A DNA stretch of 64,000 nucleotides from Myxococcota bacterium (GCA_965140415.1 OZ223209.1:1024001-1088000), one strand, 5' to 3'; positions 2 through 58,475 are shown, counted from the first letter of the stretch. Notes: generated by a model from the sequence alone, not told the origin. Made by a program: numbers and translations.

Positions 2-1276
2 GGCCAGCTAAACAGTTGGACGATCAGTGCCACCTGCGGCACGCCCGATCCGGTGGATGGCGATGACGACGGCAGCACGGCAGTCACGGGTGGAACTTGT
101 GCGCAGCCAACCGGCCTGCGCGGCTTACCTTACCGTGTGGATTCCAACAATTTGAATGTCGAGGCGTTGATCACGCCGCCTGCTTCCTGTACGGGTTGGA
201 CGATGGCTGGACCGGAGCGTGTGTGGGCACTGAATATGATTGCAGAGCAGACGATCACCATCGATGTGGATCCCACCAATTTCGATGCGGGAATTTACGT
301 GCTGCAACCTTGCGATGCCAGCGGGATGTGCTGGGGTAAAGATGAGGGAGAAACCGGTGAACCGGAGCGCCTTGTTTTTACGGCCCCTGAGAACGGCAAG
401 TATTATTTCGTGGTGGACAGTGCCTCCCAAGAACAGGTGGGACGCTTCAATTTGTGGATTCGCGAAGGCGATTTGTCTACACCTGCCAGTTACATCACGG
501 ATGAGCATATGCCTCGCGTTATCCCGGACAATCACCCGCGCGGTGCGACCAGTCGTATCGACGTAACGGAATCGATTGAAGTGGAAAACGTGGCAGTGCG
601 AGTGGATGTCACACACCCGGTGCCGACCGATCTGGAGATAAGCTTCAGTTCGCCGGCAGGAACCACGGTAGTACTGCACAATCATGAGAGCGCGACGGGC
701 GGTATTCATCGCGATTGGACGCTCAACCAGTTTGAAGGTGAACTGTCTACCGGCGAGTGGAGCCTGCGCCTGCTGGATACGTTGGCGGGTGGTGTAGGTA
801 GCCTGGATAACTGGCGCATCGCCTTCGTATCGCAGTCTGCTATTGCAGATGGTGATTTGGATATCGATCCCGATCCCGAGCCGGAAATCGATATCGACCC
901 GGATACCAGCACCAATTGCCCCGTGGATATTTTTGGAAACAACAACTGGGATCACGATCACGCCGCGTTACTTACGCTGCCGGTTTCTTACACGAATTTA
1001 ACGACCTGCTACAACAGCCAGGACTGGTACAAGTTCAACGTCACTTCCGGGCAGCGCATCAGCGCCAACGTGCATTTCGACGATGACTTGGGGGATATCG
1101 ATCTGTACCTGTACCGGGAAGGCAGCTTCAGCACGGCTCTGGAAAGCTCCTCCGGAGTCTCCGACAACGAGTCGATCGGATACACGGTACAGCAGACGGA
1201 TGTCTATTACCTTTGGGTCAAGCTTTACACCACCAATGGCCAGAATAGCTATAGTATGAATATCTCCTTGAATTAA
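2..1276 (+). CDS. 5'-truncated extracellular protein with proprotein-convertase P-domains and pre-peptidase C-terminal (PPC) domains; probably the C-terminal part of a secreted peptidase
   Basis: The frame is open from base 2 (GQLNSWTISA, end of a P-domain). It contains a full P-domain (IPDN..GATS.I.V...V.VDVTHP...DLEI...SPAGT...GEWSLRLLD...GG.GSLDNW) and PPC-like segments (DWYKF.V..GQ.I...DIDLYLY...NESI). Confidence 0.75.
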   Translation, partial: GQLNSWTISATCGTPDPVDGDDDGSTAVTGGTCAQPTGLRGLPYRVDSNNLNVEALITPPASCTGWTMAGPERVWALNMIAEQTITIDVDPTNFDAGIYVLQPCDASGMCWGKDEGETGEPERLVFTAPENGKYYFVVDSASQEQVGRFNLWIREGDLSTPASYITDEHMPRVIPDNHPRGATSRIDVTESIEVENVAVRVDVTHPVPTDLEISFSSPAGTTVVLHNHESATGGIHRDWTLNQFEGELSTGEWSLRLLDTLAGGVGSLDNWRIAFVSQSAIADGDLDIDPDPEPEIDIDPDTSTNCPVDIFGNNNWDHDHAALLTLPVSYTNLTTCYNSQDWYKFNVTSGQRISANVHFDDDLGDIDLYLYREGSFSTALESSSGVSDNESIGYTVQQTDVYYLWVKLYTTNGQNSYSMNISLN

Positions 1277-1327
1277 CTCGTCTATTCTCGTAAATACTTT
1301 TTTTGCCCCATCCCTGAAAAATCCCTT

Positions 1328-1356
1328 TTCTCAGCGTAAGTTTCTTGTGGTATAAT
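1328..1356 (+). promoter_or_regulatory. sigma70-type promoter (extended -10)
   Basis: TTCTCA-N17-TATAAT with TG at -15/-14; AGGAGG RBS at 1401-1406 downstream. Confidence 0.55.
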
Positions 1357-1411
1357 TCCTGAGATGTGTAAGAGCACCTGCGGAAGTTCCTGTATACAAG
1401 AGGAGGGATGG

Positions 1412-3028
1412 ATGAAACGGAATTTTGGATTGATTGCAACCATTGTTGCCATTCTGCTTGTTTTCTCATTTGCGGCAGTGGGATGCGGCAGCGATGACGA
1501 CCCCGTCGACGGTGACACGCCGACCGACGGAGACAATAATCCGGATGGAGATCAAAGCACGGATGGCGATCAGCCGGTTGATGGAGACAGTGACGGCGAT
1601 CAGACGGTGGATGGCGATGCCGATGGTGACCTGGTAGTCGATGGGGATGACGAACAGGAGGTCGTAACCTATCCGATGGGCAGCATTGCCGGAACGGTCA
1701 AAACCAGCGCCGATCTGGCGGCTTTCTCCGGAGAACTACGGCTGTACAACGAAAGCCCCTATGAAACGCATGGCGTGGAACCGATTTCAACCCAGGCGGT
1801 GGCTTTCGATACCGGAAGCACTGAAAAGGAATACAGCTTTACCGATTTGACGGATGGTCAGTACTATTTAATGTTCGTAGTCGATGTGGACGACGATCAG
1901 GAGGCCGCCAACGATTTCATGGCGGTGCATCCAGACCAGGTGAATATCGTGCGCGCCGACAGCGAACAGCGCGATATCACCGGGATCGACATTTATGCCA
2001 ACGTGCAAAACCAGGATTGGGGTTCTGTGGATGGCACTTTGTATCTTACGGCGGAATACGAAGATCGTCCGGTAACCATCGTGGCCGCACAGCAAAAGCC
2101 CGGCGGCGAGTTGGAATTCTGGCCCAGCGCCATTTTCCTGACCGCGCCTGCAACGACACGTCAGCAGGAGCGCAGTTTCTCCCTGATGAACTTGACCGAC
2201 GGCACCTATTTCGTAGTCGCCTTCATCACGTTGGAAGACGATCAGGGGTGGAAAGTCTTCGTGTCGCCTTATCGCTATGAAATTCTGGCCTCGGATTCGA
2301 CCAAGAAAACCTACACCGATCAGCCTTTCTATCCGGGTCAGCAGCATCCCGAATTGGGTTCGATTTCCGGTTTCTTGACGTTGGGCGGAGCCATCGATGG
2401 CGGCTTGACGGGTGTGTATCTCTTCAGCGATCCGGCGAAACCTCTGGAGTCGGCGGTAAGCTGGACCTTCATCGAAAAGAATGATACCGATACCCAGTAC
2501 GCCTATACGGTCAAGAATCTTCACGCACAGACCGGAATTTACATTGCCGGTTTCTATCAGCAACAGGAAAGCTGGCCGTACTCGCTGGCGATCTGGCCGG
2601 ATGAAATTGAAATCGATTTCAACGATCCTTATAAGAAAGACTGGACCGGCGTCAATTTCGATCTGGCCATCACGGCGGTTTCGGGAACCTTGAATTTACC
2701 CAGCACCGGTGCACCGACCGGTTTTAGCACTGTAGCTCGCTTGATTCTGTATTCCATCGCCGATAACGAATATGCCGCCGGAACCGATTTGTTCCTGGGC
2801 AATCCCGAAGACGGGCAGTGGACGGCGGATTTCCTGCTTTACCCGGTGCCTAACGGTGACTGGACGCCCATTCTGATTCCGGACATGAATGGCGACAACG
2901 TGATTGATGGCAACGACGACTGGTGCTATGAGCCAAACGACACCATCACAATCGATGGTACACAGGCCAGCCAGATTCTAAGCTCGCCCATCTTCTTCTA
3001 CTGGAACAAGTGCGTGGACTCGCTGTAA
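1412..3028 (+). CDS. lipoprotein with acidic DGD-repeat linker and about four repeated beta-sandwich (carboxypeptidase-regulatory-like) domains
   Basis: RBS AGGAGG then MKRNF...FAAVG-C lipobox; about 8 DGD motifs; repeated G(S)I.G.(L/V)...Y...nL.DG.Y modules. Confidence 0.75.
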   Translation: MKRNFGLIATIVAILLVFSFAAVGCGSDDDPVDGDTPTDGDNNPDGDQSTDGDQPVDGDSDGDQTVDGDADGDLVVDGDDEQEVVTYPMGSIAGTVKTSADLAAFSGELRLYNESPYETHGVEPISTQAVAFDTGSTEKEYSFTDLTDGQYYLMFVVDVDDDQEAANDFMAVHPDQVNIVRADSEQRDITGIDIYANVQNQDWGSVDGTLYLTAEYEDRPVTIVAAQQKPGGELEFWPSAIFLTAPATTRQQERSFSLMNLTDGTYFVVAFITLEDDQGWKVFVSPYRYEILASDSTKKTYTDQPFYPGQQHPELGSISGFLTLGGAIDGGLTGVYLFSDPAKPLESAVSWTFIEKNDTDTQYAYTVKNLHAQTGIYIAGFYQQQESWPYSLAIWPDEIEIDFNDPYKKDWTGVNFDLAITAVSGTLNLPSTGAPTGFSTVARLILYSIADNEYAAGTDLFLGNPEDGQWTADFLLYPVPNGDWTPILIPDMNGDNVIDGNDDWCYEPNDTITIDGTQASQILSSPIFFYWNKCVDSL

Positions 3029-3286: not shown

Positions 3287-6200
3287 CTACATCACTTCAT
3301 TTACCGTAATCACCTGACTTTGCTGTTCGCTCTTGTTTTCCGGATTGTAATACGGATACACACAGGCTTCTCCGGAAGAAGCATCCATCGGCCAGCGGGC
3401 CAGCAATTCGTATCCAATCGTTACTTGTCCACCGGAAGCGATTTCATTGATGTAAAAGAGAATCTGGTGCGGTGTGGTTTCGTAACGGGTCAATACGCCG
3501 CCTTGACTGATGCGTTCGTCCAATGCGGTCGAAACCAGGTCGAATCCGGGGGGAAGGCCGACAGAAGCCAGCACCATGGCAACATTCGACTCGCTGACAT
3601 TGTCGATCGTCACCGTTACACCAAGCAGGTCGTTGACTTCCAAAGAGGTCCGATCGTAGGCGACATCGATGGTCAACGGTCCCTGCTCATCGGGAATCTC
3701 TTCTCCCGGTTCATACCAGCTCGCCGTTGCCTGGTACATCAAACGCCCGCTACCTCCAAAGTCGATATCGATCTGGTTGTCTCCCGGAACCACCTGCTCT
3801 CCCAGATCCACCAGGCGCATCAGATCGATGGTATCCGAGGTGACCACAAGCTCCGTTTCCGTGCCGCCATTTGCCGAAACCGTAATTACGGCATCCGCAC
3901 TTTCCAGTCGACTGCCCATCGAAGCGATCATCAGTCGTAATGCCAGCACGGTGCCTTGTGTGGTGGACCAGTTGCCGAACGAATCTTTCTGGCGAACCAG
4001 CCAATTGATAATTCCGTTTACCACATCCTGATTCAGACCATCTTCCAGCAGCATCAGTCCGATCAAGGCCGTGGTTTCCAGTACCGCATTCGGACCGGTG
4101 CTGTAGGTTTCCGTTGCGGCATCCTGCGTCCAGAAATAGCCGTCGCTTTCGTCTTGTTGCTTGGCGTTGACAATCGATGTGATCAGCGAACGCAGGGAAC
4201 CGTTCTGCTCGTATCCGGCAGATACCAGCGCCATGGCGACCATCGCCTGCGTGTAGGTATCTTCCGCTTCGTCGATATGACTCAGCAGGAAATTCGCCGC
4301 AGAAGAAACCGCAGAAGCTTGCAAACCGGAGCGAGACAGCGCCCAGGTGACATATGCTGTCGTGCGCAACACGGAGCCCTGATAGTTATTGATTGCGCCT
4401 TCCGAAATGCCGCCGGAGGATGGCGGAATGGAACCGTCGGATGACTGCTTCTGCGCCAGCCACGCTGCCGTTCGAGGAATCAAATTGGCATCGATCGCAT
4501 GGACCTTCGCCATATCGATGAATTCCATCAATCCGTAGCAGGTGAGCACGGTGTGAGCCGGTGTATTTCCAAACCACTCGAAGCCGCCGCCATCCACTTC
4601 GAAGGTCAGTAGGCGTTGATAGCCCTGGGAAATGTAATCCCTGGCTTTCAATTCGATTTCCGGCGTGAGTTGATCGGTTTCAACCAGATACTGAAGCACC
4701 AGGATATTCGGGTAGGTCGAGGAAGACGTCTGCTCGAAGCAGCCGCCCGGCATCCGAAGCATCGAATCCAGTCCTTCGACCGCCTGCGACAGCAAACCCG
4801 GGAAGATTTTGACGAACAGACTTTCCGAGTCTTCAATGGCGCGATCCGGGATGGTCAGTTGCAGCGAAAGCGATTCTTCCAGCCAGTCGCTTTGCGAGGC
4901 AGTGCGCTCTACGCCGTCCGGGCGAACGGTGACCTGGCGTTGTACGGCATCCTGCATTTCCGTTCCTTCCGCCCAGAGCGTCATGGACTGCTGCCCGATT
5001 TTCAGCACTCGAATCGGGAAATAGATACCCACGACCTGATTGGCGCCGACTTCAACGGATTTGCTCAGCCCGTCCAATGGTTCGAACCAGTCTTCCGCTT
5101 CCGCCATCAGTTGAATGGTCTGACTCTGCGGCAGATAGTTGTAAATCGCCAGCGGCAGATACACTTCATCGTTTTGCGTCAAGAAAGTCGGGAAATCGAT
5201 ATCGACGAAGAAGTCCTGGAATACGAGAATGCCATCGGTCATGCTGCCCAGTTGGCCGTCTGTGGTGTTGGCCAGCGCTGTGAGTCGCCAGGTGGTGATG
5301 GAATCCGGCATCGTTACGGACAGATCGACCGTTCCATCCGAAGCCGTGATCAGGTTCGGTTCCACCAATAAGGTTTCCGGGAACCAGGAGCGCAGATGTG
5401 TGCTTGCAGTGGTGCCATTGCCGGAATCGTAATCGCCGTCTGCGCAAGCATCACCATCCGTCACCCATGAATCGCCGTCTGCCGTGTTGTAATAGTCCTC
5501 GCAGAATTCATGCGTTACCTGGATGTCGTATTCCGTGCCAAACACTTCGTCCGGTCCGGCGCTTAACGCCTTGACCTGAACCGCCCATCCCCGGTTGTAA
5601 AAATCCCACTTGATCGGATTGCCCCAGGGATCACATGCGGAACAATCCGATAACGACTCCACCAAAGCATCGACATCCAGGTTCGACGGAGTGCAGGATT
5701 CACCTACCTGCTGAGCGATCAGTTTGCGTACCAGTCGCGATACGGTACTTGAACAGACATTATTGAAATTAATTCTAACCCTTTCAAAGCTATCCATATT
5801 CACGGCATAGGTCTGCGCGGTTCCGTTAGCCGCAAAATAGGCCTGCGCCCGCTGATCCAGATCGTCCTGCTCTTCCGGGTCTTCCGGTTCGCCGCCATAC
5901 AGATCGCTCGGACTGAAGCCGTGGATCTCGTAGGTTGGATTCATGATTTCCTGTTCGAGTTGAAAATAGGTGCGTTCCATTCCCGGCTGGTATTCCTGCA
6001 ACGCAAAGACCGCCTCGTCCACGATGGTGACACCCAGTCCCGCCTGGACCGGATCGCCGTTCAAATCTTCCACCTGCATCGTGATCTGCGCCTCTTCCCG
6101 TGGCCGGTATTGGCTTTGCGAAGTCGCCATGCTGACCGAGAGATCGGAAGCCTGGCGCACGTAAATCACACGGGAATCGCGGATAATCTGACCTTCCGGT

Positions 6201-8242
6201 GTCAGGTAATACGCATACAGTTCCATGGGACCGGCCAAATCGGGAGAGAGATCGAGGTTGCCCATACCGTGACCGTCCTGCAATTCAACAGTGCTCATCA
6301 GCATTGTCTGGCCATTTACAATCACATCCAGGTAGATCCGGTCGGGCAGCAATTCCGGTTGTGTCAGGTCCGGTCGATTGGCGACGATGATTTCCGGTCG
6401 AATCGTTTCTCCGACATCGTAAATCGCTTTCAATAAACGCATCATGACGTAGCTGTTGGCCATTTCCGCTTCGAAGGAGAAAGATCGATTCAAGGCATAT
6501 CCCGCCACCGTTGCTTTCACTTGAATCGATGTATTCACATTTTCAGGAGTGTATTCGAACACCGCCATCCCAAGTGCACCGACTTCGACCTCGAATTCAT
6601 TCGAATCCGCAGAAATGGTGCAGGTCGCCGAAAGTGGTCTACCTGCCGGATCGGATAGCAGCAGGAAAAATCGCTGCGATTCTCCCTGAATGATACGGCC
6701 TGCTTCCGGTACCAGGTTTACCATTACCGGTTCGGCCACAACCTGAACCGAACGATTGAGAACCTGGCTGTGCATGGCGGCATCCGTTACCGAGATTTCC
6801 AGAAAAACGCGCGCCTTTCCCTGATCCAGTTCGCTGCCGACGAAATATGCGGGTAGATCGAGTTGGAAGGAGTAGGAGCCGTTTTCGTCCATCGTGCCGT
6901 CGATGGTGGTGAAATCCACCATTTCCACATCGTACTTACGCGCCACGATGTGTACCTTGCCGGAAGAAACCGGTTTTCCGTAGAAATATTCGGACGAAAT
7001 CGTTCCGGTCAGCCTTTCGCCCGGTTGGTAAAAACTTTTATCGGCGTTAAACGCGATTTTGAATCGAGGCAGGGTGTAGTTATCGACGGTTACGGTTTTT
7101 TCAGAAAGGATCGTTCCGGAGTTGCCCTGTATGTAGGCCCTGATCGTGTACTTTCCTAAATCAACCAACTCGGCAAGGCGGAAACTGGTTGCCGCCACAC
7201 CGTATTCACTGGTTTGTTGGGTGTCTCTGAACAGCTTGTTTCCCTTGCTGTCTACGATTTCAATAGTTATATCCTGATTGCTTAACGGCAACTGATGGGG
7301 CACCTTCAATGCCAGAGTGCGGACGTGCATCGTCTGTCCGGGTTGATAGAAAGGCTTATCCGTAGTAACCAGGATCCGGCTTTCGCGAACCACGATTACA
7401 GGTGCGGACAAGGTCTGCTGACCATGGCTATCCGAATCCACTACGATATTGAGCGTATATTGCCCATCCAGTTCCGAGGGCACATCGAGAGGCACGGTTG
7501 CAATGCCGAATGAATCCGTTTGCACGGTCATCGACTGCAATATGGAATTCCCTTCTTTCAACTCGACAGCGACCGATACATCGGCCATGGGTTGCTGGGT
7601 ATCCGGATCTTGTGCAAGAATTCGGTAAACGGTCTGTTCGCCTTCCAACAGATTATCGGACCCCATCGCCTTTGCCTGAATTTTGGGTGCGAGCATGAAA
7701 TAGGATACCTTGCCGGAAAGTACGACATCTCCCCAACTCGCCTCATAAGCCAGCAGGTAGCTTTCGATTTCCTCCGGTAATGTAGGACAAGCGCCGAGTT
7801 CGACCATGACCTTCTGTTCGCCGCGTTGAATCTCATAACTCATCGCGCTTGAACGATTCGCCAGTTCATCGCCGTTCAAATCCAGAAATGTCGTTTCGAT
7901 TCGGATTGTTTGCTTGGATTTGTTTTCCATACCGATGGGCATTTTCAGGTAACATTGCTCATTGTCCATCGCCAGTTCGAAACGGCTTTCATAAATGGTG
8001 ATGTCTTCTGCCGTCGGGTCAAGGATTTCCGGTGTGTCGCTGATGTGAGGTAGATCCGGGTTGCTGTGAATGTCCGGATTCCCATCGCCATCGCTTCCAT
8101 GGACATTGACCCAATCGCCATCGCTGCTGTCGCCATCGGGTAACAGGTAATCCGACGGCGAATCATCCGCGCAAGCCGGTAAGAAAAATAGCAGCACAAA
8201 AACGGTATATACAATTGCTTTCATTTTACTGGGTGTCTGCAT
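3287..8242 (-). CDS. alpha-2-macroglobulin family lipoprotein with intact thioester motif
   Basis: Lipobox FLPA-C; MG domains (TDKPFYQPGQ); LRSWFPETLL; PDSITTW; thioester GCFEQ at 4730-4744; alpha-alpha barrel (GYQRLLTF, STTQGTVLAL); C-terminal receptor-binding domain. RBS GGAGGG supports the start at 8242. Confidence 0.92.
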   Translation of the reverse strand: MQTPSKMKAIVYTVFVLLFFLPACADDSPSDYLLPDGDSSDGDWVNVHGSDGDGNPDIHSNPDLPHISDTPEILDPTAEDITIYESRFELAMDNEQCYLKMPIGMENKSKQTIRIETTFLDLNGDELANRSSAMSYEIQRGEQKVMVELGACPTLPEEIESYLLAYEASWGDVVLSGKVSYFMLAPKIQAKAMGSDNLLEGEQTVYRILAQDPDTQQPMADVSVAVELKEGNSILQSMTVQTDSFGIATVPLDVPSELDGQYTLNIVVDSDSHGQQTLSAPVIVVRESRILVTTDKPFYQPGQTMHVRTLALKVPHQLPLSNQDITIEIVDSKGNKLFRDTQQTSEYGVAATSFRLAELVDLGKYTIRAYIQGNSGTILSEKTVTVDNYTLPRFKIAFNADKSFYQPGERLTGTISSEYFYGKPVSSGKVHIVARKYDVEMVDFTTIDGTMDENGSYSFQLDLPAYFVGSELDQGKARVFLEISVTDAAMHSQVLNRSVQVVAEPVMVNLVPEAGRIIQGESQRFFLLLSDPAGRPLSATCTISADSNEFEVEVGALGMAVFEYTPENVNTSIQVKATVAGYALNRSFSFEAEMANSYVMMRLLKAIYDVGETIRPEIIVANRPDLTQPELLPDRIYLDVIVNGQTMLMSTVELQDGHGMGNLDLSPDLAGPMELYAYYLTPEGQIIRDSRVIYVRQASDLSVSMATSQSQYRPREEAQITMQVEDLNGDPVQAGLGVTIVDEAVFALQEYQPGMERTYFQLEQEIMNPTYEIHGFSPSDLYGGEPEDPEEQDDLDQRAQAYFAANGTAQTYAVNMDSFERVRINFNNVCSSTVSRLVRKLIAQQVGESCTPSNLDVDALVESLSDCSACDPWGNPIKWDFYNRGWAVQVKALSAGPDEVFGTEYDIQVTHEFCEDYYNTADGDSWVTDGDACADGDYDSGNGTTASTHLRSWFPETLLVEPNLITASDGTVDLSVTMPDSITTWRLTALANTTDGQLGSMTDGILVFQDFFVDIDFPTFLTQNDEVYLPLAIYNYLPQSQTIQLMAEAEDWFEPLDGLSKSVEVGANQVVGIYFPIRVLKIGQQSMTLWAEGTEMQDAVQRQVTVRPDGVERTASQSDWLEESLSLQLTIPDRAIEDSESLFVKIFPGLLSQAVEGLDSMLRMPGGCFEQTSSSTYPNILVLQYLVETDQLTPEIELKARDYISQGYQRLLTFEVDGGGFEWFGNTPAHTVLTCYGLMEFIDMAKVHAIDANLIPRTAAWLAQKQSSDGSIPPSSGGISEGAINNYQGSVLRTTAYVTWALSRSGLQASAVSSAANFLLSHIDEAEDTYTQAMVAMALVSAGYEQNGSLRSLITSIVNAKQQDESDGYFWTQDAATETYSTGPNAVLETTALIGLMLLEDGLNQDVVNGIINWLVRQKDSFGNWSTTQGTVLALRLMIASMGSRLESADAVITVSANGGTETELVVTSDTIDLMRLVDLGEQVVPGDNQIDIDFGGSGRLMYQATASWYEPGEEIPDEQGPLTIDVAYDRTSLEVNDLLGVTVTIDNVSESNVAMVLASVGLPPGFDLVSTALDERISQGGVLTRYETTPHQILFYINEIASGGQVTIGYELLARWPMDASSGEACVYPYYNPENKSEQQSQVITVNEVM

Positions 8243-8756
8243 GGCTCCCTCCTGCCAGAAAATGGTTAGATATCCAAAGTCCTTTGAAAGCGAGGTCACC
8301 TACACACCTCGACCCTCAGCGATGTTCGTTCTACCGACATATATTTCAGACTGTCGTGTTCATCTCAGTTCTTACTGGATACTTTGCAAGTCTTGCGCCA
8401 AAAGGATGTGTATGAGAAAAACGTATTGATATTAGTGTAATAAAAGGTTTGTCCTGTGATTCGGAAAAGCGCGAGTATGACAATAATGTCACTTGTAGGT
8501 ATTGGTCACGACAGAAGTGTCATTCTTTTTCACTGTTTCGTAGACAGCTTAGATCCGTTTTCTTTAACGATTGTTTCTGCCCTTGGAAGACGAAAAGCCG
8601 CCTTTCTCATGCTGGCCGATTATCGATACGGTCATGAGACGAATTCATTATTATATCTAATAAGTTAGCTCATCTCGCCGCATTTTTGCCGGTTAGCCGT
8701 GGCATGAAATTCGAGACGGGGGCTTTGTCCGTTTTCGGTTAGGAATTGCCTGACTA

Positions 8757-32349: not shown

Positions 32350-32381
32350 ACGCGGGATGTCCAGTGGGTGTCCCGCGTTTT
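32350..32381 (+). terminator. intrinsic terminator after ileS
   Basis: ACGCGGGATGTCC-AGT-GGGTGTCCCGCGTTTT. Confidence 0.7.
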
Positions 32382-47427: not shown

Positions 47428-47692
47428 CCTGTTTTCCAATCGTGATGCATGGGGGATTACTCGGACCCAGATGATTATAGCAGCCTTGGTTGAATTCAGA
47501 AGTCATTTCGTCATTTTCGCCGAGGCGGGAATCCGATGACCTGTCAACTGGTCGATCAGCTGGTTGTCTTTTCTGTAATGTCTCTCGTAGGGTGACAAAT
47601 AAAAGAAAATTACTTGCATTCGACTACGTAGAACCCTATTGTTAACAGTATATATCCTAATTAGTTTTAGACAAACTCGGTAAGGGGCAGTC

Positions 47693-48391: not shown

Positions 48392-48438
48392 AGGAGGTGC
48401 GTATCATGAAGGTCTGTCTACGAATATCGGAGGAGAGG

Positions 48439-49629: not shown

Positions 49630-49682
49630 GATATTTGGTGATTTCTGAATTCATGACACTGAAAAAGTCATAGAGGAAAGCC

Positions 49683-50867
49683 ATGCGAGTACGAATACTT
49701 TTTATTTTAATCGCTACAACGTTGGGATTGGCTGGCGGTGCGTGGGCCGAAGTCCCGGTGAGGTTGCAGTATCAGGGGTTTCTAACGGACACGAGTGGAA
49801 CACCGTTGTCCGGAGAACGGAACGTCTCTTTCTCGATTTATGGCTCGGAAAGCGGGGACGACGTGAATTGGACGCAGATAAGCCAGGTGATGGTTTGTCA
49901 GGGGTCGTTCAGTGTCCTATTGGGGAGTGAGACCAATCCGTTGGACGCCAATGTCTTTTCAGGTTCGGATCTCTGGCTAGGCATTACGGTTGGCGATGGA
50001 CCGGAATTGCTCCCGCGCATGAAGGTGAGCGCCATGCCGTTCGCGCAACAGGCTGGAGTGTCTGACAATGCTATCGGTGACATCACACCTGCTACTGTCA
50101 GTGTTTCAGGAAATCCAGTGATCGATGCTGATGGAAAGTGGGTTGGTGATCCATCCGGGTTGGCTGGACCGAAAGGTGAGAAGGGAGATACGGGCGTACA
50201 GGGGGAAACTGGCGTCGCCGGAGATTCTGTCCAGGCCTCTCCCGCCGATTCCTCGTCTTGTCCCGATGGCGGCTACGAATTCTCCGTCGGTGATAGCCTG
50301 TCGTATTTTGCTTGTAATGGCGCTGCGGGTCCGCAAGGGGAAGCAGGTGACCAGGGAGAGAAAGGTGACCAGGGAATTAAAGGGGAAACCGGAGCGGCTG
50401 GTGATGATGGTGATAGGGGACTGACTTGTTGGGATAAAAACAACAACGGAACCTGCGATTTAACCACTGAAGATACGGATGATAGCGGATATTGCAATGC
50501 AGAAGATTGCAGTTTGAATAACTCGCTTCCACAATGCCGTGATGACTATAGATATTATAAAGTGGATCTTCCTGGTCGCAGAATCTGTTATTACGTGGAA
50601 AACAATGATTGGGGCTATACGTGGAATGAATCTGCTTCTTATTGTTCTGGCGGAAATGTTGCATACTCGTTATGCACCTATGAGCAGGTCAAACACTTAA
50701 AACAGAGCAATCAAATATTTTATATGCCCGAAGGATGGTTAGCCGATCGTACGGCAGACAGTAATGCCTTGTATCTGCAAGGATGGGGAGATAGTACCGG
50801 GCAAGCGAATCTCGAGTCGGAACTGGACGATTACTACTGTTGTGTTGAATACCGGGCAAGAGATTAG
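49683..50867 (+). CDS. secreted collagen-like fibre protein 2 (paralog)
   Basis: Same architecture; 8+12 Gly-X-Y triplets; WNES..YC...LC.YEQV...WLAD...YCC. Confidence 0.8.
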   Translation: MRVRILFILIATTLGLAGGAWAEVPVRLQYQGFLTDTSGTPLSGERNVSFSIYGSESGDDVNWTQISQVMVCQGSFSVLLGSETNPLDANVFSGSDLWLGITVGDGPELLPRMKVSAMPFAQQAGVSDNAIGDITPATVSVSGNPVIDADGKWVGDPSGLAGPKGEKGDTGVQGETGVAGDSVQASPADSSSCPDGGYEFSVGDSLSYFACNGAAGPQGEAGDQGEKGDQGIKGETGAAGDDGDRGLTCWDKNNNGTCDLTTEDTDDSGYCNAEDCSLNNSLPQCRDDYRYYKVDLPGRRICYYVENNDWGYTWNESASYCSGGNVAYSLCTYEQVKHLKQSNQIFYMPEGWLADRTADSNALYLQGWGDSTGQANLESELDDYYCCVEYRARD

Positions 50868-50913
50868 GCTTAAATGATCTTGGGTTACATGAAACATGCG
50901 ATTGGGTGAAATC

Positions 50914-52218: not shown

Positions 52219-53715
52219 TCAGTCTTCGACCTCTCTGATTGTGCGCACCAGGCGAAAGCCAATCGATTTCCAGCGAGCGTTGGGTAACTCGATGTAACGA
52301 TCGGCAAGGCGACTGGAGCGGGGAGCATTCAAGCAACTGCCGCCACGACGAGAACGCAAGACCCCACTATCCAAGCCTGAGTAATCCGTTTGAGGTTCCG
52401 AGGGATAGTCTCCATACAGATCCCAATTCCATTCCCATGCATTTCCGAGAACATCATACAGTCCCCAGGCATTGGGGAGTTTCTGTCCCACGGGGTGCAT
52501 GGTCTCCCCTGAATTGCCGCAATGCCAGGCAATGAGATCACAATTCGGATCTGAGATTCTGCACTCGCTCGAAACTTCCGATATGCTGCCATCGCTGCCT
52601 TCCACCTCGTAAAAGGCCGTCTCACTTCCGGCTCGGGCGGCATATTCCCACTCCGCTTCCGTTGGTAACCGAAAACCAGGGCAGTGCTGGGGGATGCTGA
52701 AAATCGGTTTCAGACTGCATTCGGTCAACTCCCCTTCGCCTGTACAGTCAAAGCAAGTCGCCAAGTCATGAGCTTCGGAGAACTTATTGGCAAACTTCAG
52801 GGCTTCATACCACGAAACCTGTTCAACCGGACAGGTGTCTCCGCAACTCTTGAAATAGGATGGATTGTATTCCATCAATTCGGCAAACTGCCCCTGGGTC
52901 GTTTCGTAGGTCATGATCTCGTAATTATACGTCAACGTAGCTTCCCACTGCGTTTCATCGTCGTCACGTCCACCTTCTGCAAGGGGGCTTCCCATTGTGA
53001 ATGTACCGGCCTGAATAAATGTAAATCCCTCGGTAACCACTGAGATGCAGCGACCTTCCACGCAACGGCTTTGTGCATCGCACATCCCGCACTCAACCCC
53101 GCATATTGGATCTGGCCCACAGTCCAGCTCGCTGCAATCCGCATCATCCGGGCAGGTGGGTGATTGTTCTACACAGACACCTTGATTACAGTCGTAGCCA
53201 CTCTCACAAGATCCACAGATTATTCCACAGACCGGATCGGCTCCGCATTCCAACTCGCTGCAATCCGCATCTTGCGGACACTCGGGTGTTTGCTCCACAC
53301 AACTTCCCTCTAAGCAGTCATAGCCCGTTTCACAGGTTCCGCAAATGGTGCCGCAGACCGGATCTGGTCCGCATTCCGTGTTCTCGCAATCGGTTTCTTG
53401 CGGACACTCGGGTTGCTGTTTTACACAGTTTCCGTCGATGCAATCGTATCCGTCCGAACATTGGCCGCAGATGATTCCACACACAGGGTCGTTTCCACAG
53501 CTTCGCCCCGCGCAATCGGCATCCATCGGACAACTTGGATTGTTTATTTCCAGCCATCCGTCATCATCCTGATCCTGATCTGCTTCCAGATCGCCATCGA
53601 GTGTGGAGCCATCGGAATCCCCGTCGGATGTGTTGCCGCTGTTGTCCTCTACACAGGCTGTAACAAGCACAGTCAAAAGCAACAGCAACAAACCTAAAAA
53701 GCTCGAGCGCAACAT
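52219..53715 (-). CDS. lipoprotein with four Cys-rich repeats and an FGE-sulfatase domain
   Basis: Lipobox LVTA-C; 4x CP.D.DC...CG.DP.CG..CG.C..GYDC..G.CV; GTFTMGSP; CPVEQVSW; FRLPTEAEWEYAARAG; GFRLVRT. Confidence 0.88.
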   Translation of the reverse strand: MLRSSFLGLLLLLLTVLVTACVEDNSGNTSDGDSDGSTLDGDLEADQDQDDDGWLEINNPSCPMDADCAGRSCGNDPVCGIICGQCSDGYDCIDGNCVKQQPECPQETDCENTECGPDPVCGTICGTCETGYDCLEGSCVEQTPECPQDADCSELECGADPVCGIICGSCESGYDCNQGVCVEQSPTCPDDADCSELDCGPDPICGVECGMCDAQSRCVEGRCISVVTEGFTFIQAGTFTMGSPLAEGGRDDDETQWEATLTYNYEIMTYETTQGQFAELMEYNPSYFKSCGDTCPVEQVSWYEALKFANKFSEAHDLATCFDCTGEGELTECSLKPIFSIPQHCPGFRLPTEAEWEYAARAGSETAFYEVEGSDGSISEVSSECRISDPNCDLIAWHCGNSGETMHPVGQKLPNAWGLYDVLGNAWEWNWDLYGDYPSEPQTDYSGLDSGVLRSRRGGSCLNAPRSSRLADRYIELPNARWKSIGFRLVRTIREVED

Positions 53716-53726: not shown

Positions 53727-56258
53727 CTATCTATCGGAGCATCCCGTGATCAACTCACCATCATGAATCGTTCCTGCATTTCCAGATTCTCCTTGTTGAG
53801 TTCCTGGAGCGTCTGCGTTTCCTCCGACCCCGGCTGTTCCCGGCTGTAGGTCGTTTTCATTCAGAGTCGCATCTGTGCCGCAAAGGAAAATCGGGAACGA
53901 CCAGCCTCCACTGCCTCCGCCGCCTTGGCCACCGTTACCGCCTTTGCCTCCGTCACCGCCGTCACCGCCTTCTCCGACTTCGTTTGAGGACGTGCTTCCA
54001 CCATCGCCACCGCCACCACCAGATCCGCCATTTCCTCCGCTGCCGCCATCGCCACCGCGACCGCCATTGCCGGTTTCAATGACACAGTTTGATATCTCAG
54101 TTCCACTTGATCGGAACAGAAGAATGCCGATGGAGCTTCCGCCGGCCTGACCGCCGTGACCGCCGGTTCCTCCACAGCCACCGGAACCACCACCACCGCC
54201 GCCACTGCCGGCTCCATCAACGCATAGATAGCCGGTTTGTCCGGCTCCACCACCTCCTCCTCCGCCGCCAGCGCCCGATTCACCGGAGTGTCCGGTTTGA
54301 CCCGGCGCACCCGACCACAAAAAGTAATCCACGACAAGCGCGTTGGAGATTGCACCCAGGCCCGGCTCTCCCGTTTGTCCCGACTGGCCTATACCTCCAT
54401 CAAACCCGTCGCCACCGCTGCTGCAATTGGAATATACCGTGCCTCCTTGACCGCCTTGTCCGCATGACGATCCGCCGCAGCCCGTGTTTTCAGCACCTGT
54501 TTGGCCGTTACATCCTCCAAAAGCCGGATTGGATCCTCCATCGCCGCCACTGCCACCCTGTCCGGACTCTCCCACTGTACAACTTCGACTATTCCCCCCG
54601 GAACCGCCACTGCCCTCTGCGTTTTCATTGTCGATGCTTCCGGCTCCTCCATTACCTCCAACAAGACCACCCAGGCCCTGCTGCCCCGTCTCTCCAACGT
54701 GGCCATCGGTTCCATTTGCTGTGGCGATGGTGCAATTGGCAACGCGAAGTCCAGGCGATAGAGAAGCCCAGATGCCAAAGCTGCCAACGCCGTCGCCCAG
54801 GCTGTCATCGGAAGTTTGAATTGTGACGAATTGCAGTTCGCTTCTATCTGTCAGAGTATCGGCCAGCACCCCGACGACTTGACCGCTCAACGGATCGACC
54901 GTATCGGCCAGGATGGCTGTAGTATAGGAAATCGGATCAAAGGTCCATGAAGTGTCATCTGCAAAACCGCCGAATACTGAAACGCCATTTTTCATGTGAA
55001 CGGTTTCGTGGTAGTCCCCTGCCGCGATATAGACATGTGGCTTATTGTTGGACAGATCATCGTCCGATAGACTGGCATTGGCCATATCAATACCGGCTTG
55101 AATGGAATCCAGCGGTGATTGACGGGTTCCGGCCCCATCGGATGCTCCCTGGAGGCTAACATATACCGCACTGCTATATAGTCCATCCACTCCGTCGCAA
55201 TTTGCATCGATCCCTTCGAGATCGGGAGGATCCATTGGATCCGTTACAACGCACTGTTCTTCACAGCCATTTCCGGCACCAGCTTCATTCAGATCTTCGT
55301 TCACATCGATCCAGCCGGGGAGACAGATTAGATCACAGGTCGCATTATGACAGACTGCCAGAGTATTGGACGCATCGGTCGGGCACGTCTTGCCACAGCT
55401 ACCGCAATTTAACGCATCGTTATTTAGATCTGTGGCGCATTCTGTCTGTGAACCTTCACAATTTGCCATGTTTTCTGGACAATTTTGGCCAATGCATTCT
55501 CCAGCGGAGCAAATAGTGGCATAGGTATAGGGATCCTGGTCATCACAGGCATCGCCATTATTGTCGGGGTCGTTGGAACAGGTTCCCGAAAGCAACTCGC
55601 ATGTGTCAGCAGTGCATGGGTTATTGTCCTGGCAGTCGGTGTCATTTAAACAAGTCCATGAATTCTCGCGGTCCCCCTCCGCAGAATCGTAATCCGATTC
55701 ATAAATCTCCCAATCGGTTTCCAGTATGTCGTAATCCTCATCACCGTCCACAGAATTGGAACAGAGACAAGCATCTATAGGCTCCCCTTGTTCGTTTTGC
55801 TTTTCGCCGCATCCGACCGAACCGCATCCAAAGGTTTGCTGACAATAATCCTCACAGTTCTGGTAGAACCAGGTACCATCGATGCATGTGGCCAGATTTT
55901 CGGACAAACACATCGTTTGGTCTTCCGTACAGCTATTCGTATCACCATCCGGTACATCTCCGTCCGATGAATCCCCATCCGTATTCACGTTACTAAAATC
56001 CCCATCTGGAAGTGGGATACACTCATAGTTGTAACAGCGCCATCCAAAATCGCAATCTGTATCGGTTTCACATGTATACTGACAGGTTTCATCGATACAA
56101 TGCTTGCTACCTTCGCAGTCACTATCTTTCTTGCATCCTGAGACTGCATCATTATCATCATCACCTTCTGATATTTTAGTTGAACCCTGACAGGCAATAA
56201 TCAATGTCATGGTTGTAGCAAGACAAAGAATGAATAGCATTCTCAGTGTGGTAGGCAT
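53727..56258 (-). CDS. Cys-rich lipoprotein with C-terminal beta-helix/Gly-rich module, paralogous to the end of 11550-16949
   Basis: Lipobox IIA-C; DNNPCT.D.C; GIDANCDGVDG...AVYVS..G...AGT...P..SIQ.GI; GVSVFGGF; poly-Gly tail. Confidence 0.8.
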   Translation of the reverse strand: MPTTLRMLFILCLATTMTLIIACQGSTKISEGDDDNDAVSGCKKDSDCEGSKHCIDETCQYTCETDTDCDFGWRCYNYECIPLPDGDFSNVNTDGDSSDGDVPDGDTNSCTEDQTMCLSENLATCIDGTWFYQNCEDYCQQTFGCGSVGCGEKQNEQGEPIDACLCSNSVDGDEDYDILETDWEIYESDYDSAEGDRENSWTCLNDTDCQDNNPCTADTCELLSGTCSNDPDNNGDACDDQDPYTYATICSAGECIGQNCPENMANCEGSQTECATDLNNDALNCGSCGKTCPTDASNTLAVCHNATCDLICLPGWIDVNEDLNEAGAGNGCEEQCVVTDPMDPPDLEGIDANCDGVDGLYSSAVYVSLQGASDGAGTRQSPLDSIQAGIDMANASLSDDDLSNNKPHVYIAAGDYHETVHMKNGVSVFGGFADDTSWTFDPISYTTAILADTVDPLSGQVVGVLADTLTDRSELQFVTIQTSDDSLGDGVGSFGIWASLSPGLRVANCTIATANGTDGHVGETGQQGLGGLVGGNGGAGSIDNENAEGSGGSGGNSRSCTVGESGQGGSGGDGGSNPAFGGCNGQTGAENTGCGGSSCGQGGQGGTVYSNCSSGGDGFDGGIGQSGQTGEPGLGAISNALVVDYFLWSGAPGQTGHSGESGAGGGGGGGGAGQTGYLCVDGAGSGGGGGGSGGCGGTGGHGGQAGGSSIGILLFRSSGTEISNCVIETGNGGRGGDGGSGGNGGSGGGGGDGGSTSSNEVGEGGDGGDGGKGGNGGQGGGGSGGWSFPIFLCGTDATLNENDLQPGTAGVGGNADAPGTQQGESGNAGTIHDGELITGCSDR

Positions 56259-56886
56259 GTCAACTCTCCATAAATCCCCAAGTTTCATACGTCCGCCTCA
56301 AGAGCACCTCAACGCAACTACTACTATGCGCTGTACGCAGCATCCCTCAGCTGTTTTGATAATAGTGACGCCAACCTATCACGATATGCACTGACATTCA
56401 ATTCATAATTTGCTTAAAATAATTCTCGCGATCCAAAAAACACGAAACCCGCTTCCCGATGCACTTGAAAGCGGATTCAGTTATTTATGAGTTGGTGTAT
56501 GGTGCTTGTATCAAGCAATAGTGAGACCATTTAAGTGATTGAGAGCACGAGTTGTTTCGGCTGATTAAGTAATGCTTTGAAAGATTGTTATTTGCGATAT
56601 TGCAGTTGTTTTGAAGCATATCATGTCGATTGCTGAAGAAGGAATCTCTTGGTTAACGCTAACCATATAGCGATGTGGTACATGCACCTGTCCCCGGAAG
56701 TCAAACGGGATGCGGCTAGGCGATTTTAAGTGTATGACGTTAATGAATCTTTGCTGGTTTTGCAGCATTCTCTCGTAGCTTTTGGGTTTCACATATCAAT
56801 AGCAAACAAGCCCGATGATTTGCTCATTGACATTCCGGCGAACGAAGAGTATGTAGAGTTGTTGTTGAAGAAGGGTTGTATTTAAT

Positions 56887-57315
56887 ATGCAGAAAAGAAG
56901 CCTTTACTACTCGAAATTGTCCACATATTTAAGCACCGCCGCCATGGCGGCGCTGGTGCTGCGGACTTTGCTTCTGACCCTGCACTTCATCTCACTCCCG
57001 CATGCCATTGATCCGCACACCGGGCACTTCGTTCACCTGCATAATCACGCCAGTGAAGAATTACACCAGTATGAACCTCCCACGGCGCGATCCAAGCCGG
57101 GTATCCAGGCGAATTCACATTCCTGTTGTGACAGTTGCGCTCATGACTGTCCCTACAACCACTTCCTTCATCAGCCTTCCAGCCAGAACCTGAACCTGGT
57201 CGACAATATCTGGATTCTACCGCCTTCTGCGGAGACAAGTCTCCCGTATGGTCTCTCTCTTTTCATACGTGACGACCTACACTTGCTAGCCCCAATGAAT
57301 TCACCTCCCGTGTAA
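56887..57315 (+). CDS. His/Cys-rich small protein, DUF2946-like putative leader of the metal-uptake operon
   Basis: N-terminal hydrophobic stretch; H..PH...PHTGH..H.HNH; HSCCDSCAHDC; C-terminal LAPMNSPPV. Confidence 0.55.
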   Translation: MQKRSLYYSKLSTYLSTAAMAALVLRTLLLTLHFISLPHAIDPHTGHFVHLHNHASEELHQYEPPTARSKPGIQANSHSCCDSCAHDCPYNHFLHQPSSQNLNLVDNIWILPPSAETSLPYGLSLFIRDDLHLLAPMNSPPV

Positions 57316-57482
57316 TTGTTCGTAGCTACAACGATCCAACGGTCCCACAAAGACCGCTGGAAACTGTCTTACCGATTGATGAATCAACTGAAGCTTCCAT
57401 CGGGTGCTTGCGCTTGCGCTTAAGGCGGGCTGTACCTATGGAGAGACAGTGAAAATGCGACTACAACACAATGGAGAAACCC

Positions 57483-58475
57483 ATGAATTCATACAAGGTT
57501 ATCTTGCAGTACACCCTTTTGATTGCTTTTACCCTTTTACTTTCCGCCTGCGGCGGCGACGATGACGGAACGAATACGGATGGAGACACCTGGGATGGCG
57601 TCTGCACCGACGAACGCGACGGTTGGGAAAAATGCGAAAGCAACCGGATCCTATGGTGCCATGTTCTGGAAGGCATGGACCCGCATTTCCATGAAGGCTC
57701 AAACTGCGAAGCGCTGGGCCTGACTTGCGTAGAGCATGTCCACCAACATGACGGTCACACTCATTACGAAGCGTTCTGTGTGGATGAATCTATCACCTGC
57801 GAGGAGGGCGAGTTCGCCTGCGTAGACAACACCGCCCAAAACTGTATCGACGGTGTCATGGCTCTTGAACCCTGCGGTACGAGTCAGTGCCACGAGGAAA
57901 CCGATGAGGCCGTCTGCGAAGAAGAAGGCGAAGAGGTTTGTGGTGGACATGGTCACATGGATGGAGATGAATGCCATTGCGATGAGGACTACGAAGTCGA
58001 CCCCGACGATTCGACGAACTGCATTTCTTCGCTGACCTTCCCGGAAATGGCTTGCAAATTTTTCAACGAAGGCAAAGACGACATCGAGGAGGATCACCAT
58101 CTCGACGCTACGGATTCGACTCCCGGGCCACACGCGCATCTGGATGAAGTGATGGAGGCACATCTTCTAGCAGCCAACAGCTCGAATTACGTGCATTTTC
58201 CGGTACTGGAAACCGGTGAGTACGTCATGTTCCTGGATACGACGGGCGTGGTCGCGACCTTCTACGACAAGGACGGCGAGGAAGTTCCCTTCACGAATCC
58301 CGGCCCAAACGGCTTCTGTTCAGATAGCCTCGTGGATCATTTCCACATCTCCGCCACCTACACCGGTGATGGGGAAAATCCCGTTCCGACCATCGTGGAA
58401 TTCCAGGTGAATGCGGATACCGAGGTAAAATTTCTCATCATGTTACATGAAGAAGACGACCACGATCACGAGTAG
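57483..58475 (+). CDS. His-rich, Cys-rich lipoprotein, probable metal-binding
   Basis: Lipobox LLSA-C; HVHQHDGHTH; CGGHGH; HAH; C-terminal HEEDDHDHE. Confidence 0.75.
   Translation: MNSYKVILQYTLLIAFTLLLSACGGDDDGTNTDGDTWDGVCTDERDGWEKCESNRILWCHVLEGMDPHFHEGSNCEALGLTCVEHVHQHDGHTHYEAFCVDESITCEEGEFACVDNTAQNCIDGVMALEPCGTSQCHEETDEAVCEEEGEEVCGGHGHMDGDECHCDEDYEVDPDDSTNCISSLTFPEMACKFFNEGKDDIEEDHHLDATDSTPGPHAHLDEVMEAHLLAANSSNYVHFPVLETGEYVMFLDTTGVVATFYDKDGEEVPFTNPGPNGFCSDSLVDHFHISATYTGDGENPVPTIVEFQVNADTEVKFLIMLHEEDDHDHE

Follow-up and report, generated by a model that had tools for sequence, protein, structure and literature searches.

Along a stretch of 64,000 nucleotides assigned to a Myxococcota bacterium (GCA_965140415.1 OZ223209.1:1024001-1088000; hereafter the window, meaning this whole stretch at its full length), a single tripeptide, Asp-Gly-Asp (DGD), recurs in exported proteins that otherwise have nothing in common, which raises the question of what it does there. 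The original prediction, made from the sequence of the window, listed 13 exported open reading frames (ORFs) containing DGD and proposed a lineage-specific modification or sorting code. We found that DGD arrays are confined to exported proteins and lie at linker sites, that the number of their units varies between orthologues, and that they are specific to one bacterial family. It is fairly probable, in our judgment, that they represent a modular, lineage-specific extracytoplasmic spacer, whose length is set by unit gain and loss, whose D-G-D core is functionally constrained, and which probably binds Ca2+.

Translation of the 13 listed ORFs showed that all contained DGD, with 64 copies compared with eight of DDG and seven of GDD. 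Our 37 gene calls in the window held 70 copies in total: 51 in lipoproteins (n = 10), 17 in signal-peptide proteins (n = 12), one in a C-terminally anchored GH38 protein, and one among the cytoplasmic proteins (n = 10). The last was in isoleucyl-tRNA synthetase (IleRS), exactly the single incidental cytoplasmic copy that had been claimed. By Pfam, the DGD proteins of the window are unrelated to one another, and include A2M, ASH/HYDIN-type Ig, P-domain/PPC, and GH38 proteins, two with FGE-sulfatase domains, and several without a family. The extended motif that had been put forward, (P/V/S/T/A)-DGD-x-(D/E), was right on its left-hand side, since one of the five residues preceded 56 of the 64 copies, whereas D/E occurred two residues after the tripeptide in only 21 of 64; genome-wide, the corresponding figures were 3,346 and 1,254 of 4,489.

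The window lies in a single 5.98-Mb contig with 52% G+C. Genes were called with our own hexamer log-odds caller (4,293 genes, 88.8% of the genome covered), and the lipobox, signal-peptide, membrane, and cytoplasmic classes were assigned by heuristic scripts, whose crudeness is the main technical caveat of the class-based counts. DGD occurred 4,488 times in the 4,293 gene calls and accounted for 0.76% of all proteome residues; among tripeptides with 50 or more occurrences, none was more enriched (7.05 times expectation), the next being HHH at 3.6 times. In the strict lipoprotein class, 2,224 copies were observed and 219 expected (10.2x), and in the strict signal-peptide class 873 and 107 (8.2x), with DDG and GDD at 0.8–1.2x in both. 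Alternative starts had to be allowed, because strict calls produced a spurious cytoplasmic DGD ratio of 3.1x from lipoproteins whose starts had been placed too far downstream. With alternative starts, exported proteins contained 4,158 copies (9.4x) and cytoplasmic proteins 214, compared with 199 expected (1.07x), and the claim that DGD is confined to exported proteins was borne out.

Among the findings that the original prediction had named as counting against it was the absence of a DGD excess over DDG and GDD once composition was controlled. The excess persisted. Lipoproteins and signal-peptide proteins together contained 3,097 DGD, compared with 406 ± 15 in whole-protein shuffles (n = 30); when residues were shuffled within 10-residue blocks (n = 30), 671 ± 27 copies were expected, leaving a 4.6-fold excess, and DDG and GDD stood at 0.46–0.57 of the block-shuffle expectation. 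Furthermore, every one of the 57 one-residue neighbors of the forms XGD, DXD, and DGX fell within 0.5–1.9x in exported proteins (for example, EGD 0.8, DGE 1.4, NGD 1.3, DSD 1.6, and DAD 1.2), and EGE was at about 1.2x. Because none of the neighbors shares the enrichment, the motif is the exact tripeptide and not acidity in general, as had been proposed.

Could so exact a repeat be a by-product of the DNA itself? Neutral slippage of a minisatellite containing GAYGGNGAY, or a bias in mutation or composition, with linkers as the only places that tolerate the product, would account for the few near-perfect DNA arrays (including one long perfect run in G008, the single genome of one sister family), for the gain and loss of whole units, and for the breaking of short-read contigs at the array in one assembly. 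Three sequencing runs of a single study, one of them probably the source, contain the stretch as contigs, and no RNA run was listed with it; these contigs showed neither indels nor variant array lengths, which contigs are in any case unable to reveal. However, among 1,549 pairs of adjacent units with the same period, only 92 were identical in DNA, and 410 of the 502 adjacent pairs with identical peptides differed in DNA. All 16 codon combinations of the DGD 9-mer were used, at frequencies near those of D and G codons elsewhere, in line with the codon variation that had been noted from the window. Synonymous differences at DGD codons were found in 45–47% of adjacent-unit comparisons, compared with 47–62% expected if the units were independent, and non-synonymous differences at spacer codons in 1,756 of 3,676. 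The GAYGGNGAY 9-mer was in the sense coding frame in 4,487 of 5,228 occurrences, the reversed DNA pattern used as a control had no matches, and an in-phase unit was missing in about 132 of 2,319 steps (gaps of 10 and 12 instead of 5 and 6). Slippage would also leave unexplained why DGD is at 1.07x in cytoplasmic proteins and why near-cognate tripeptides are not in excess.

The near-saturation of synonymous sites means that selection acts on the peptide, as the original prediction had supposed; the codon, spacer, and reading-frame data all support this. The divergence of the codons around a tripeptide that has been held also means that the arrays are old. The DGD tripeptide is under purifying selection, whereas the spacer residues and synonymous sites drift, and neither slippage nor composition can be the main cause of the arrays; the slippage explanation is largely refuted, and we give it hardly any credence. 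Linkers of low complexity tend to be written off as compositional noise, but here the tripeptide is selected while its surroundings drift.

The trait has a sharp lineage boundary. When genomes were searched at the DNA level for three DGD spaced at period 5–6, matches numbered 1,727 in the genome of the window and 724, 542, 320, 191, and 107 in the other five genomes of its family, so that the pattern was abundant in all six. G008 had 98 matches, and the remaining three genomes of the class, which comprises only 10 genomes, had 7, 0, and 0. In the rest of the phylum, covered by 392 genomes with a completeness of 80% or more, none had more than 80, and in the whole 401-genome phylum survey, which includes the genome of the window, 261 had no match; the sparse matches in the wider phylum were mostly (GD)n microsatellites or repeats of the DGDADP/DSDSDGD type. 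The DGD-array trait is therefore a family-level one, which as a synapomorphy cleanly sets one uncultured bacterial family apart, and the predicted lineage specificity was confirmed. Spacers have lineage dialects (D-T-P in G004, D/E plus P/L/S in G008) around a constant DGD. The closest named records of the IleRS are metagenome-assembled genomes of a Myxococcota bacterium (71% identity), a Planctomycetota bacterium (69%), a Deltaproteobacteria bacterium (65%), and a Bradymonadales bacterium (63%); given these relatives and the tails resembling MYXO-CTERM described below, the host reads as a member of an uncultured Myxococcota-like class, although the IleRS and the tails do not prove the phylum label.

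Within the arrays, the spacing is short and regular. Among 3,666 pairs of successive DGD, the gap was 5 in 1,289, 6 in 898, 7 in 268, and 4 in 130; because gaps of 5 and 6 dominate, DGD can be described as the core of tandem penta- and hexapeptides, (x-x-D-G-D)n. There were 362 arrays of at least three units in 272 proteins, and about 1,131 DGD stood alone. Copy number ranged from 1 to 59 units, and the largest number of DGD in one protein was 119. Consecutive periods were equal in 1,687 of 2,237 cases, and periods of 5, 6, and 7 were mixed within arrays in the other 550. The unit has the form [T/V/M/I]-[V/T/P/I/A]-D-G-D, with spacer residues composed of T (20%), V (20%), P (14%, rising to 31% at one position of the spacer), I (10%), A (7%), and S (7%), and with flavors that vary by array, such as TP, VV, TT, VI, VP, TPV, I/V-Q-P, and hydrophobic M/V/I pairs. 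Over the 15,638 residues of the 362 arrays, K and R together made up 0.4%, Ser 2.9%, and Cys 0%, aromatic residues were nearly absent, and the net charge was −0.40 per residue.

The proteins that carry the arrays (n = 272) were classed as lipoproteins (188), signal-peptide proteins (78), membrane proteins (4), and cytoplasmic proteins (2), and on inspection both of the last showed a hydrophobic N-terminus. At least 30 of the 78 signal-peptide proteins resemble lipoproteins with non-canonical lipoboxes; the others are true signal peptidase I substrates, in one of which the array begins right at the A-x-A site. Placement was determined for the 350 arrays of the lipoprotein and signal-peptide classes: 176 were N-terminal, 131 internal, and 43 C-terminal (within 100 amino acids of the end). 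In lipoproteins, the first DGD lay a median of 12 residues from the Cys, and the N-terminal tether had a median length of 25 residues (interquartile range 16–41, maximum 210). Tails with G-C, a hydrophobic segment, and basic residues at the C-terminus were recognized heuristically in 119 proteins, 34 of which had DGD in the 90 amino acids upstream. In the window, the sites that had been claimed (past the lipobox Cys, ahead of such a C-terminal tail, and between domains) proved correct, as the DGD-bearing genes show:

2..1276 (+): 3' part of a lipoprotein gene with P_proprotein and PPC domains, the 5' end of which lies upstream of the window; DGD at residues 19 and 283 of the part in the window.
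1364..3028 (+): lipoprotein, likely start 1412; nine-unit DGD array right behind the lipobox Cys (CGSDDDPVDGD...), about nt 1508-1648.
3287..8299 (-): alpha-2-macroglobulin-like (A2M) protein with a lipobox-like LPAC; three DGD past the Cys, about nt 8084-8137.
3287..8299 (-), same A2M protein, acidic insert at the boundary between bait region and A2M domain: three DGD, about nt 5432-5479.
11550..16949 (-): lipoprotein of 1,799 amino acids with ASH/HYDIN-type Ig-like domains; N-terminal acidic tether with DGD at residues 64 and 93.
17059..19278 (-): exported ASH/Ig-like protein; DGD behind CGGDD, a three-unit array at residues 121-133 (about nt 18880-18918), and DGD at residue 275.
19712..20617 (+): signal-peptide protein; three DGD at residues 221-261 (about nt 20372-20494), within an acidic stretch that precedes a C-terminal tail of G-C-C, hydrophobic, and basic residues.
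26973..28532 (-): FGE-sulfatase-domain lipoprotein; DGD at residue 44 (tether) and residue 375.
38182..40299 (+): exported protein; two DGD at residues 650-663 (about nt 40129-40170), directly ahead of a MYXO-CTERM-like tail.
43948..47439 (-): GH38 alpha-mannosidase-like exported protein; one DGD at residue 1092, in the linker preceding the C-terminal anchor.
47693..48391 (+): lipoprotein of 232 amino acids, nearly all stalk, with a C-terminal beta tip of about 55 amino acids; 23 DGD, most of them in DGDTPV hexapeptides (about nt 47786-48211).
49722..50867 (+): exported collagen-repeat protein; one DGD, not in the original list.
52219..53715 (-): FGE-sulfatase-domain lipoprotein; two DGD at residues 31-42, past the lipobox Cys (about nt 53590-53625).
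53727..56288 (-): lipoprotein of 853 amino acids without a Pfam family; four-unit array at residues 95-116 (about nt 55941-56006) and DGD at residue 181.
57471..58475 (+): lipoprotein (CGGDDDGTNTDGD); DGD at residues 37 and 164.

The tail of the protein at 38182-40299 scored 19.6 bits against the TIGR03901 (MYXO-CTERM) profile, whose cut-off is 20, and the tails of those at 19712-20617 and 43948-47439 had no match to this profile at E ≤ 0.01. In two giant exported proteins encoded elsewhere in the genome, L089 (G000:C1:4995822-5003312, with 119 DGD) and L085 (4558598-4562419), DGD-[V/M/I]-[V/I] arrays lie between repeated Cys-rich modules of about 90 amino acids (DCYGYGDC...CSV) and lamin-tail, PPC, Kelch, and CBM25 domains. 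The lipoprotein at 47693-48391 belongs to a family of short proteins with a lipobox or signal peptide, a DGD array of 7–23 units, and a conserved C-terminal segment of about 55 amino acids (motif ...F/LSFAP...), the other members being G000:C1:3321066-3321599, 5229589-5230041, and 2041877-2042320; AlphaFold2 drew three strands in the tip segment, with a predicted local distance difference test (pLDDT) of about 55–63. In the window, three tandem genes come after this stalk-plus-tip gene on the same strand (48397/48469-49629, 49722-50867, and 50896-52107); they encode exported paralogues that contain collagen triple-helix repeats, and the four genes (47693-52107, +) may form a single surface-fiber operon.

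How firmly a given protein holds on to its array can be judged from orthologues. Among 192 reciprocal best hits with 400 kb of another genome, G001 (median identity 59%), exported pairs had at least two DGD in both genomes in 15 cases, in one genome only in 6, and in neither in 43. DGD numbers within pairs differed (28/6, 25/2, 13/10, and 8/6), and the alignments placed arrays at matching linker sites, with indels of whole units and altered spacer residues. Lone DGD in FG-GAP-like DxDxDGDxD loops were exactly conserved between orthologues (DFDNDGDLDL). The orthologues of the window A2M protein (3287-8299, L100, L101, and L104, from four genomes) are instructive, since both the N-terminal tether and the insert ahead of the A2M domain are acidic and variable in all of them, and are filled with DGD in the genome of the window, in G001 with DGD at the insert alone (there is no N-terminal DGD), with poly-D in G008, and with D/E/G in G006. 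This insert (about residues 935-960 of the window protein), at the bait-region/A2M boundary ahead of a conserved VRSWFPETL, is hypervariable and has a lineage-specific make-up. Because relatives fill the same acidic sites differently, DGD arrays are this family's version of acidic linkers, and the variation between orthologues means that a given protein does not depend on a DGD array at a fixed position. The FGE-sulfatase family, with 2–36 matches per genome, was too paralogous for orthologues to be assigned and showed linker styles only. G006, which belongs to a sister family with almost no DGD arrays, has 36 FGE-sulfatase-domain matches, several of which lie in open frames of 2,000–7,515 amino acids (such as G006:C3:426263-431554 and G006:C1:1415361-1418642), suggesting giant proteins with multiple FGE domains.

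Lipoproteins fall into two types. In 316 of 611, DGD occurred within 40 amino acids of the Cys, and these early-DGD lipoproteins had the preferred residues S/G, S/D/G, D, D, and D at positions +2 to +6, with S/G in 61% at +2 and D in 34–41% at +4 to +6. K or R at +2 to +7 was found in only 20 of the 316, compared with 112 of the 295 without early DGD. An acidic pair at +2 to +7 was associated with early DGD (counts 149/50/156/245, odds ratio 4.7, p = 6e-17) when DGDs inside +2 to +7 were excluded, and the lipoproteins without any DGD (n = 221) had no consensus at +2 to +6. One type thus combines C-[S/G]-[S/D/G]-D-D-D, an early DGD tether, and scarce K/R, and the other lacks a consensus and often has K/R. 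The housekeeping proteins that face the periplasm, namely BamD, LptE, and four OmpA-domain lipoproteins as far as they could be identified, fall in the second type: none of the six has a DGD tether (by our own arithmetic, a chance of about 0.013 at a 52% background), and none has the S-D-D-D patch. No MlaA was found in the genome.

The patch recalls the lipoprotein export signal (LES) of Bacteroidetes. In PMC5080379, SDDDD at +2 to +6 is described as an experimentally functional export signal for surface lipoproteins in Bacteroides fragilis, and the LES as C-X-K-(D/E)2-X in Capnocytophaga canimorsus and SDDFE in Flavobacterium johnsoniae. The early-DGD lipoproteins likewise carry S/G, S/D/G, D, D, D at these positions and avoid K/R, and a polar residue with at least two acidic ones at +2 to +6, missing from periplasm-facing lipoproteins, is what we found, as a feature of sequence. 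The likeness lies in the patch ahead of the array and not in DGD itself; proteins other than lipoproteins carry DGD arrays too, some at sites remote from the N-terminus, and the Bacteroidetes are another phylum. The data are consistent with DGD-tethered lipoproteins forming a separate, possibly surface-exposed class, and the sorting idea of the original prediction survives in altered form, as the signal, if any, may be the patch rather than DGD. If the S-D-D-D patch works like an LES, acidic N-terminal surface export of lipoproteins would reach a second, unrelated phylum.

Is DGD, then, a recognition element, namely a modification sequon or part of a code for sorting or surface export, with machinery that the family encodes elsewhere recognizing each unit? 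Its exactness (9.4x, with neighbors at background) resembles a recognized motif more than a compositional linker, and it is confined to exported proteins; its restriction to one family is what a lineage-specific reader would produce, and the early-DGD lipoproteins are a distinct set with an LES-like S-D-D-D patch and scarce K/R, whereas the six housekeeping lipoproteins lack both. There is also precedent in the staphylococcal SD repeats, which are glycosylated by SdgA/SdgB and so serve also as a sequon, according to PMC3794999 and PMC8561734. However, the units are found at any linker site (176 N-terminal, 131 internal, and 43 C-terminal arrays), their copy number (1–59) varies freely between orthologues, and the G001 orthologue of the window A2M protein dispenses with N-terminal DGD altogether. 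An LES is position-critical at +2 to +6, but the first DGD lies a median of 12 amino acids past the Cys. Moreover, the units contain no obligatory hydroxyl or amide acceptor, as Thr adjoins only 27–28% of them, and neither of the two enzyme leads searched (PCMT and Asp beta-hydroxylase) supplied a candidate. On balance, we consider recognition of this kind unlikely.

The enzyme leads were as follows. D-G is a hot spot of isomerization, and the repair of isoaspartate was considered and rejected: the genome has one true PCMT, in a 225-amino-acid frame with no room for a signal peptide, and the other six PCMT matches are weak (20–40 bits), partial, and probably other methyltransferases. Asp beta-hydroxylase (AspH) had no match in the genome, a result made uninformative by 14 control genomes that were equally silent. 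The O-glycosylation sequon of Bacteroidetes, D-[ST]-[ALVIMT], was also rejected, because only about 278 of the 1,289 period-5 spacers would fit it; this system is not known to occur outside the Bacteroidota. A broader version of the idea, in which a family-specific partner recognizes DGD as a genuine code that defines, together with the S-D-D-D patch, a separate route of export and display, strikes us as possible but doubtful. The partner might be an enzyme that modifies the protein, a factor for surface export, or other stalks, associating into a lattice in the presence of Ca2+. Roughly one in two lipoproteins and a large number of secreted proteins would take such a route, which would create a surface protein “brush” with no described counterpart.

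Of the four mechanisms that the original prediction had offered, a Ca2+-stiffened or acidic spacer fits best, ahead of a modification, a surface-export signal, and a shedding site. The spacer is the best fit because arrays of variable copy number (1–59) occupy three kinds of linker site, and because orthologues in sister lineages have poly-D or D/E/G at the same sites. The arrays would play three roles: as a tether that connects the first folded domain to the lipid-modified Cys in about half of the lipoproteins, as a stalk ahead of the C-terminal MYXO-CTERM-like anchors, and as a linker between the modules of large secreted proteins. A charge of −0.4 per residue together with scarce K/R, aromatic residues, and Cys suggests that the arrays are extended, protease-poor, polyanionic spacers that would hold domains off the membrane. 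The use of Asp and not Glu, the central Gly, and the beta-branched or Pro neighbors most likely reflect low-affinity binding of Ca2+ or Mg2+, because Ca2+ binding by disordered proteins, according to PMC8391695, prefers Asp to Glu and needs hydrophobic residues within the motif, with an affinity of about 50–100 µM. The bound ions, which are plentiful only in the extracellular space, would make the stalks stiffer or link them to one another. As the most speculative step, the S-D-D-D patch next to the Cys may in addition destine lipoproteins for exposure at the cell surface, much as the LES does in Bacteroidetes.

A different structural possibility is a folded repeat rod, perhaps dependent on Ca2+, in the form of a beta-roll or beta-helix with three hexapeptides or four pentapeptides per turn. 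The regular period (1,687 of 2,237 consecutive pairs equal) and the placement of beta-branched V/I/T around D-G, a turn-former, would suit such a fold, as would the many hydrophobic DGD-[VMI]-[VI] arrays and a weak Bactofilin match on the window array (E = 0.007). V-D-G-D-T-P also fits the hexapeptide-repeat consensus, [LIV]-[GAED]-X2-[STAV]-X, and G-D-V-x-D is loosely like A(D/N)LXX, the consensus of pentapeptide repeats. RTX repeats, according to PMC7730722, fold only when Ca2+ is bound. However, the arrays fall under no repeat family in Pfam or NCBIfam, and in 15 array-bearing proteins, the TSP_3, HemolysinCabind, Pentapeptide, and Hexapep profiles had no match at E ≤ 0.01–0.1. AlphaFold2 predictions from single sequences gave a mean pLDDT of 50.2 for the protein at 47693-48391 and 39.5 for the hydrophobic array and lamin-tail domain of L085; the arrays were modeled as coil (pLDDT 40–53) with no repeat fold, at low confidence. 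A sequence search of the PDB returned no relative: P0001 had no match, and the window array matched low-complexity segments only, namely a ribosomal protein tail and the TPTDAG-repeat N-terminus of 9ep5_A (weak, E = 0.35). Furthermore, Pro makes up 14% of the spacer residues (up to 31% at one position), periods of 5, 6, and 7 are mixed in 550 of 2,237 steps, and the number of units varies freely between orthologues. A folded rod is therefore improbable in our estimation.

Several observations weigh against the spacer explanation as well. A plain spacer has no obvious need for an exact tripeptide, and because sister lineages use poly-D or mixed D/E/G at the same sites, the exactness of DGD stays unexplained. 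Gaps of 5–6 do not recreate the canonical Dx[DN]xDG loop, as only the 130 gap-4 pairs do, and hydrophobic DGD-V/M/I-V/I arrays would be odd in a floppy linker. The L085 model was of low confidence throughout, its lamin-tail domain included, so that “coil” is not evidence of disorder. The LES-like patch may be merely the start of an Asp-rich tether, and the housekeeping lipoproteins without DGD are ancient, single-domain proteins that may never have gained lineage-specific linkers. Gene calls and export classes are heuristic, and the exported class (1,420 of 4,293 genes) is inflated by permissive start choice. Finally, metal binding, rigidity, and surface exposure are properties that we infer for the arrays.

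As a kind, acidic repeat stalks and linkers are familiar from SD repeats, Pro/Thr linkers, and the acidic tethers of lipoproteins. The novelty lies in the exactness of the tripeptide, in its use across the proteome (0.76% of residues), and in the sharp family boundary. One close analogy is with the staphylococcal SD repeats (ClfA, ClfB, SdrC/D), in which an exact short Asp repeat likewise stands between a functional domain and a surface anchor in several different proteins. DGD arrays weakly matched the SD region of NCBIfam models (E 1e-9 to 1e-4), and apart from Cementoin and DUF963, the SD-repeat region of ClfA/SdrC/SdrD was the only profile matched, in each case through low complexity and far under the cut-offs. 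They are nevertheless not SD repeats: the best score was 36.2 bits against a cut-off of 1,150, the unit is an xxDGD penta- or hexapeptide without obligatory Ser instead of an SD dipeptide, and the anchors are a lipobox or MYXO-CTERM-like tail, not LPXTG. In addition, SD repeats occur in a few Gram-positive LPXTG proteins per genome, compared with 272 DGD proteins here, which include lipoproteins and interdomain linkers.

Calcium-binding repeats share other features with the arrays. Loops of the Dx[DN]xDG type (EF-hand-like, Excalibur, FG-GAP, and TSP3) and the DGDGD motifs of DDxP modules are similarly dominated by Asp and Gly and extracellular (PMC3123361 and PMC7730722), but the DGD period of 5–6 misses the D-x-D-x-D-G register, and Gly or Cys does not follow as in TSP3 and Excalibur. 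The bulk of the arrays do not conform to the Dx[DN]xDG loop, which appears in the 130 gap-4 pairs and in 30 of 1,132 lone DGD ([DN]x[DN]xDGD); the TSP_3 register, D-x-D-x-D-G-x-x-D-x-x-D, is not given by gaps of 5–6, and Gly follows DGD in fewer than 6% of cases. RTX repeats (GGXGXDXUX) are also exported, Gly/Asp-rich, and tandem, with a hydrophobic position, and bind Ca2+ only outside the cell, according to PMC7730722 and PMC8391695. They have another consensus and a period of 9, compared with 5–6 in DGD arrays (period 9 in 68 of 3,666 gaps, and no HemolysinCabind match), and are type I secretion substrates without signal peptides. No published description of DGD repeats was found in a search that did not extend to subscription journals and supplementary files; the nearest published motif was DGDGD inside the DDxP modules of 136–309 amino acids, as described in PMC3123361 and PMC7730722.

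Lineage-flavored, low-complexity linkers of exported multidomain proteins also include the Pro/Thr-rich linkers of secreted glycoside hydrolases and the Gly/Asp-rich tethers behind the lipobox of haloarchaeal lipoproteins. These are compositional and tolerate near-cognates, whereas the arrays described here use one exact tripeptide and exclude its neighbors. DGD is therefore a natural test case for exactness in a linker, whether it comes from the geometry of metal chelation, from the evasion of proteases, or from recognition, and it provides a simple sequence marker of the exported, possibly surface-displayed proteome in these organisms.

Three other loci in the window were noted. A nitrogenase-like trio on the minus strand (32380-36679) consists of a NifH-family ATPase (35837-36679) and two Oxidored_nitro proteins similar to NifD/K (33669-35840 and 32380-33672). 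At 41699-43897 (+), a 732-amino-acid fusion joins a class-V aminotransferase similar to cysteine desulfurases with AIRS/AIRS_C domains similar to selenophosphate synthetase. A fusion of DUF1722 with a 2-thiouracil desulfurase domain (21583-22533, +) adjoins the gene for an exported MORN-repeat protein (22628-24085, -).

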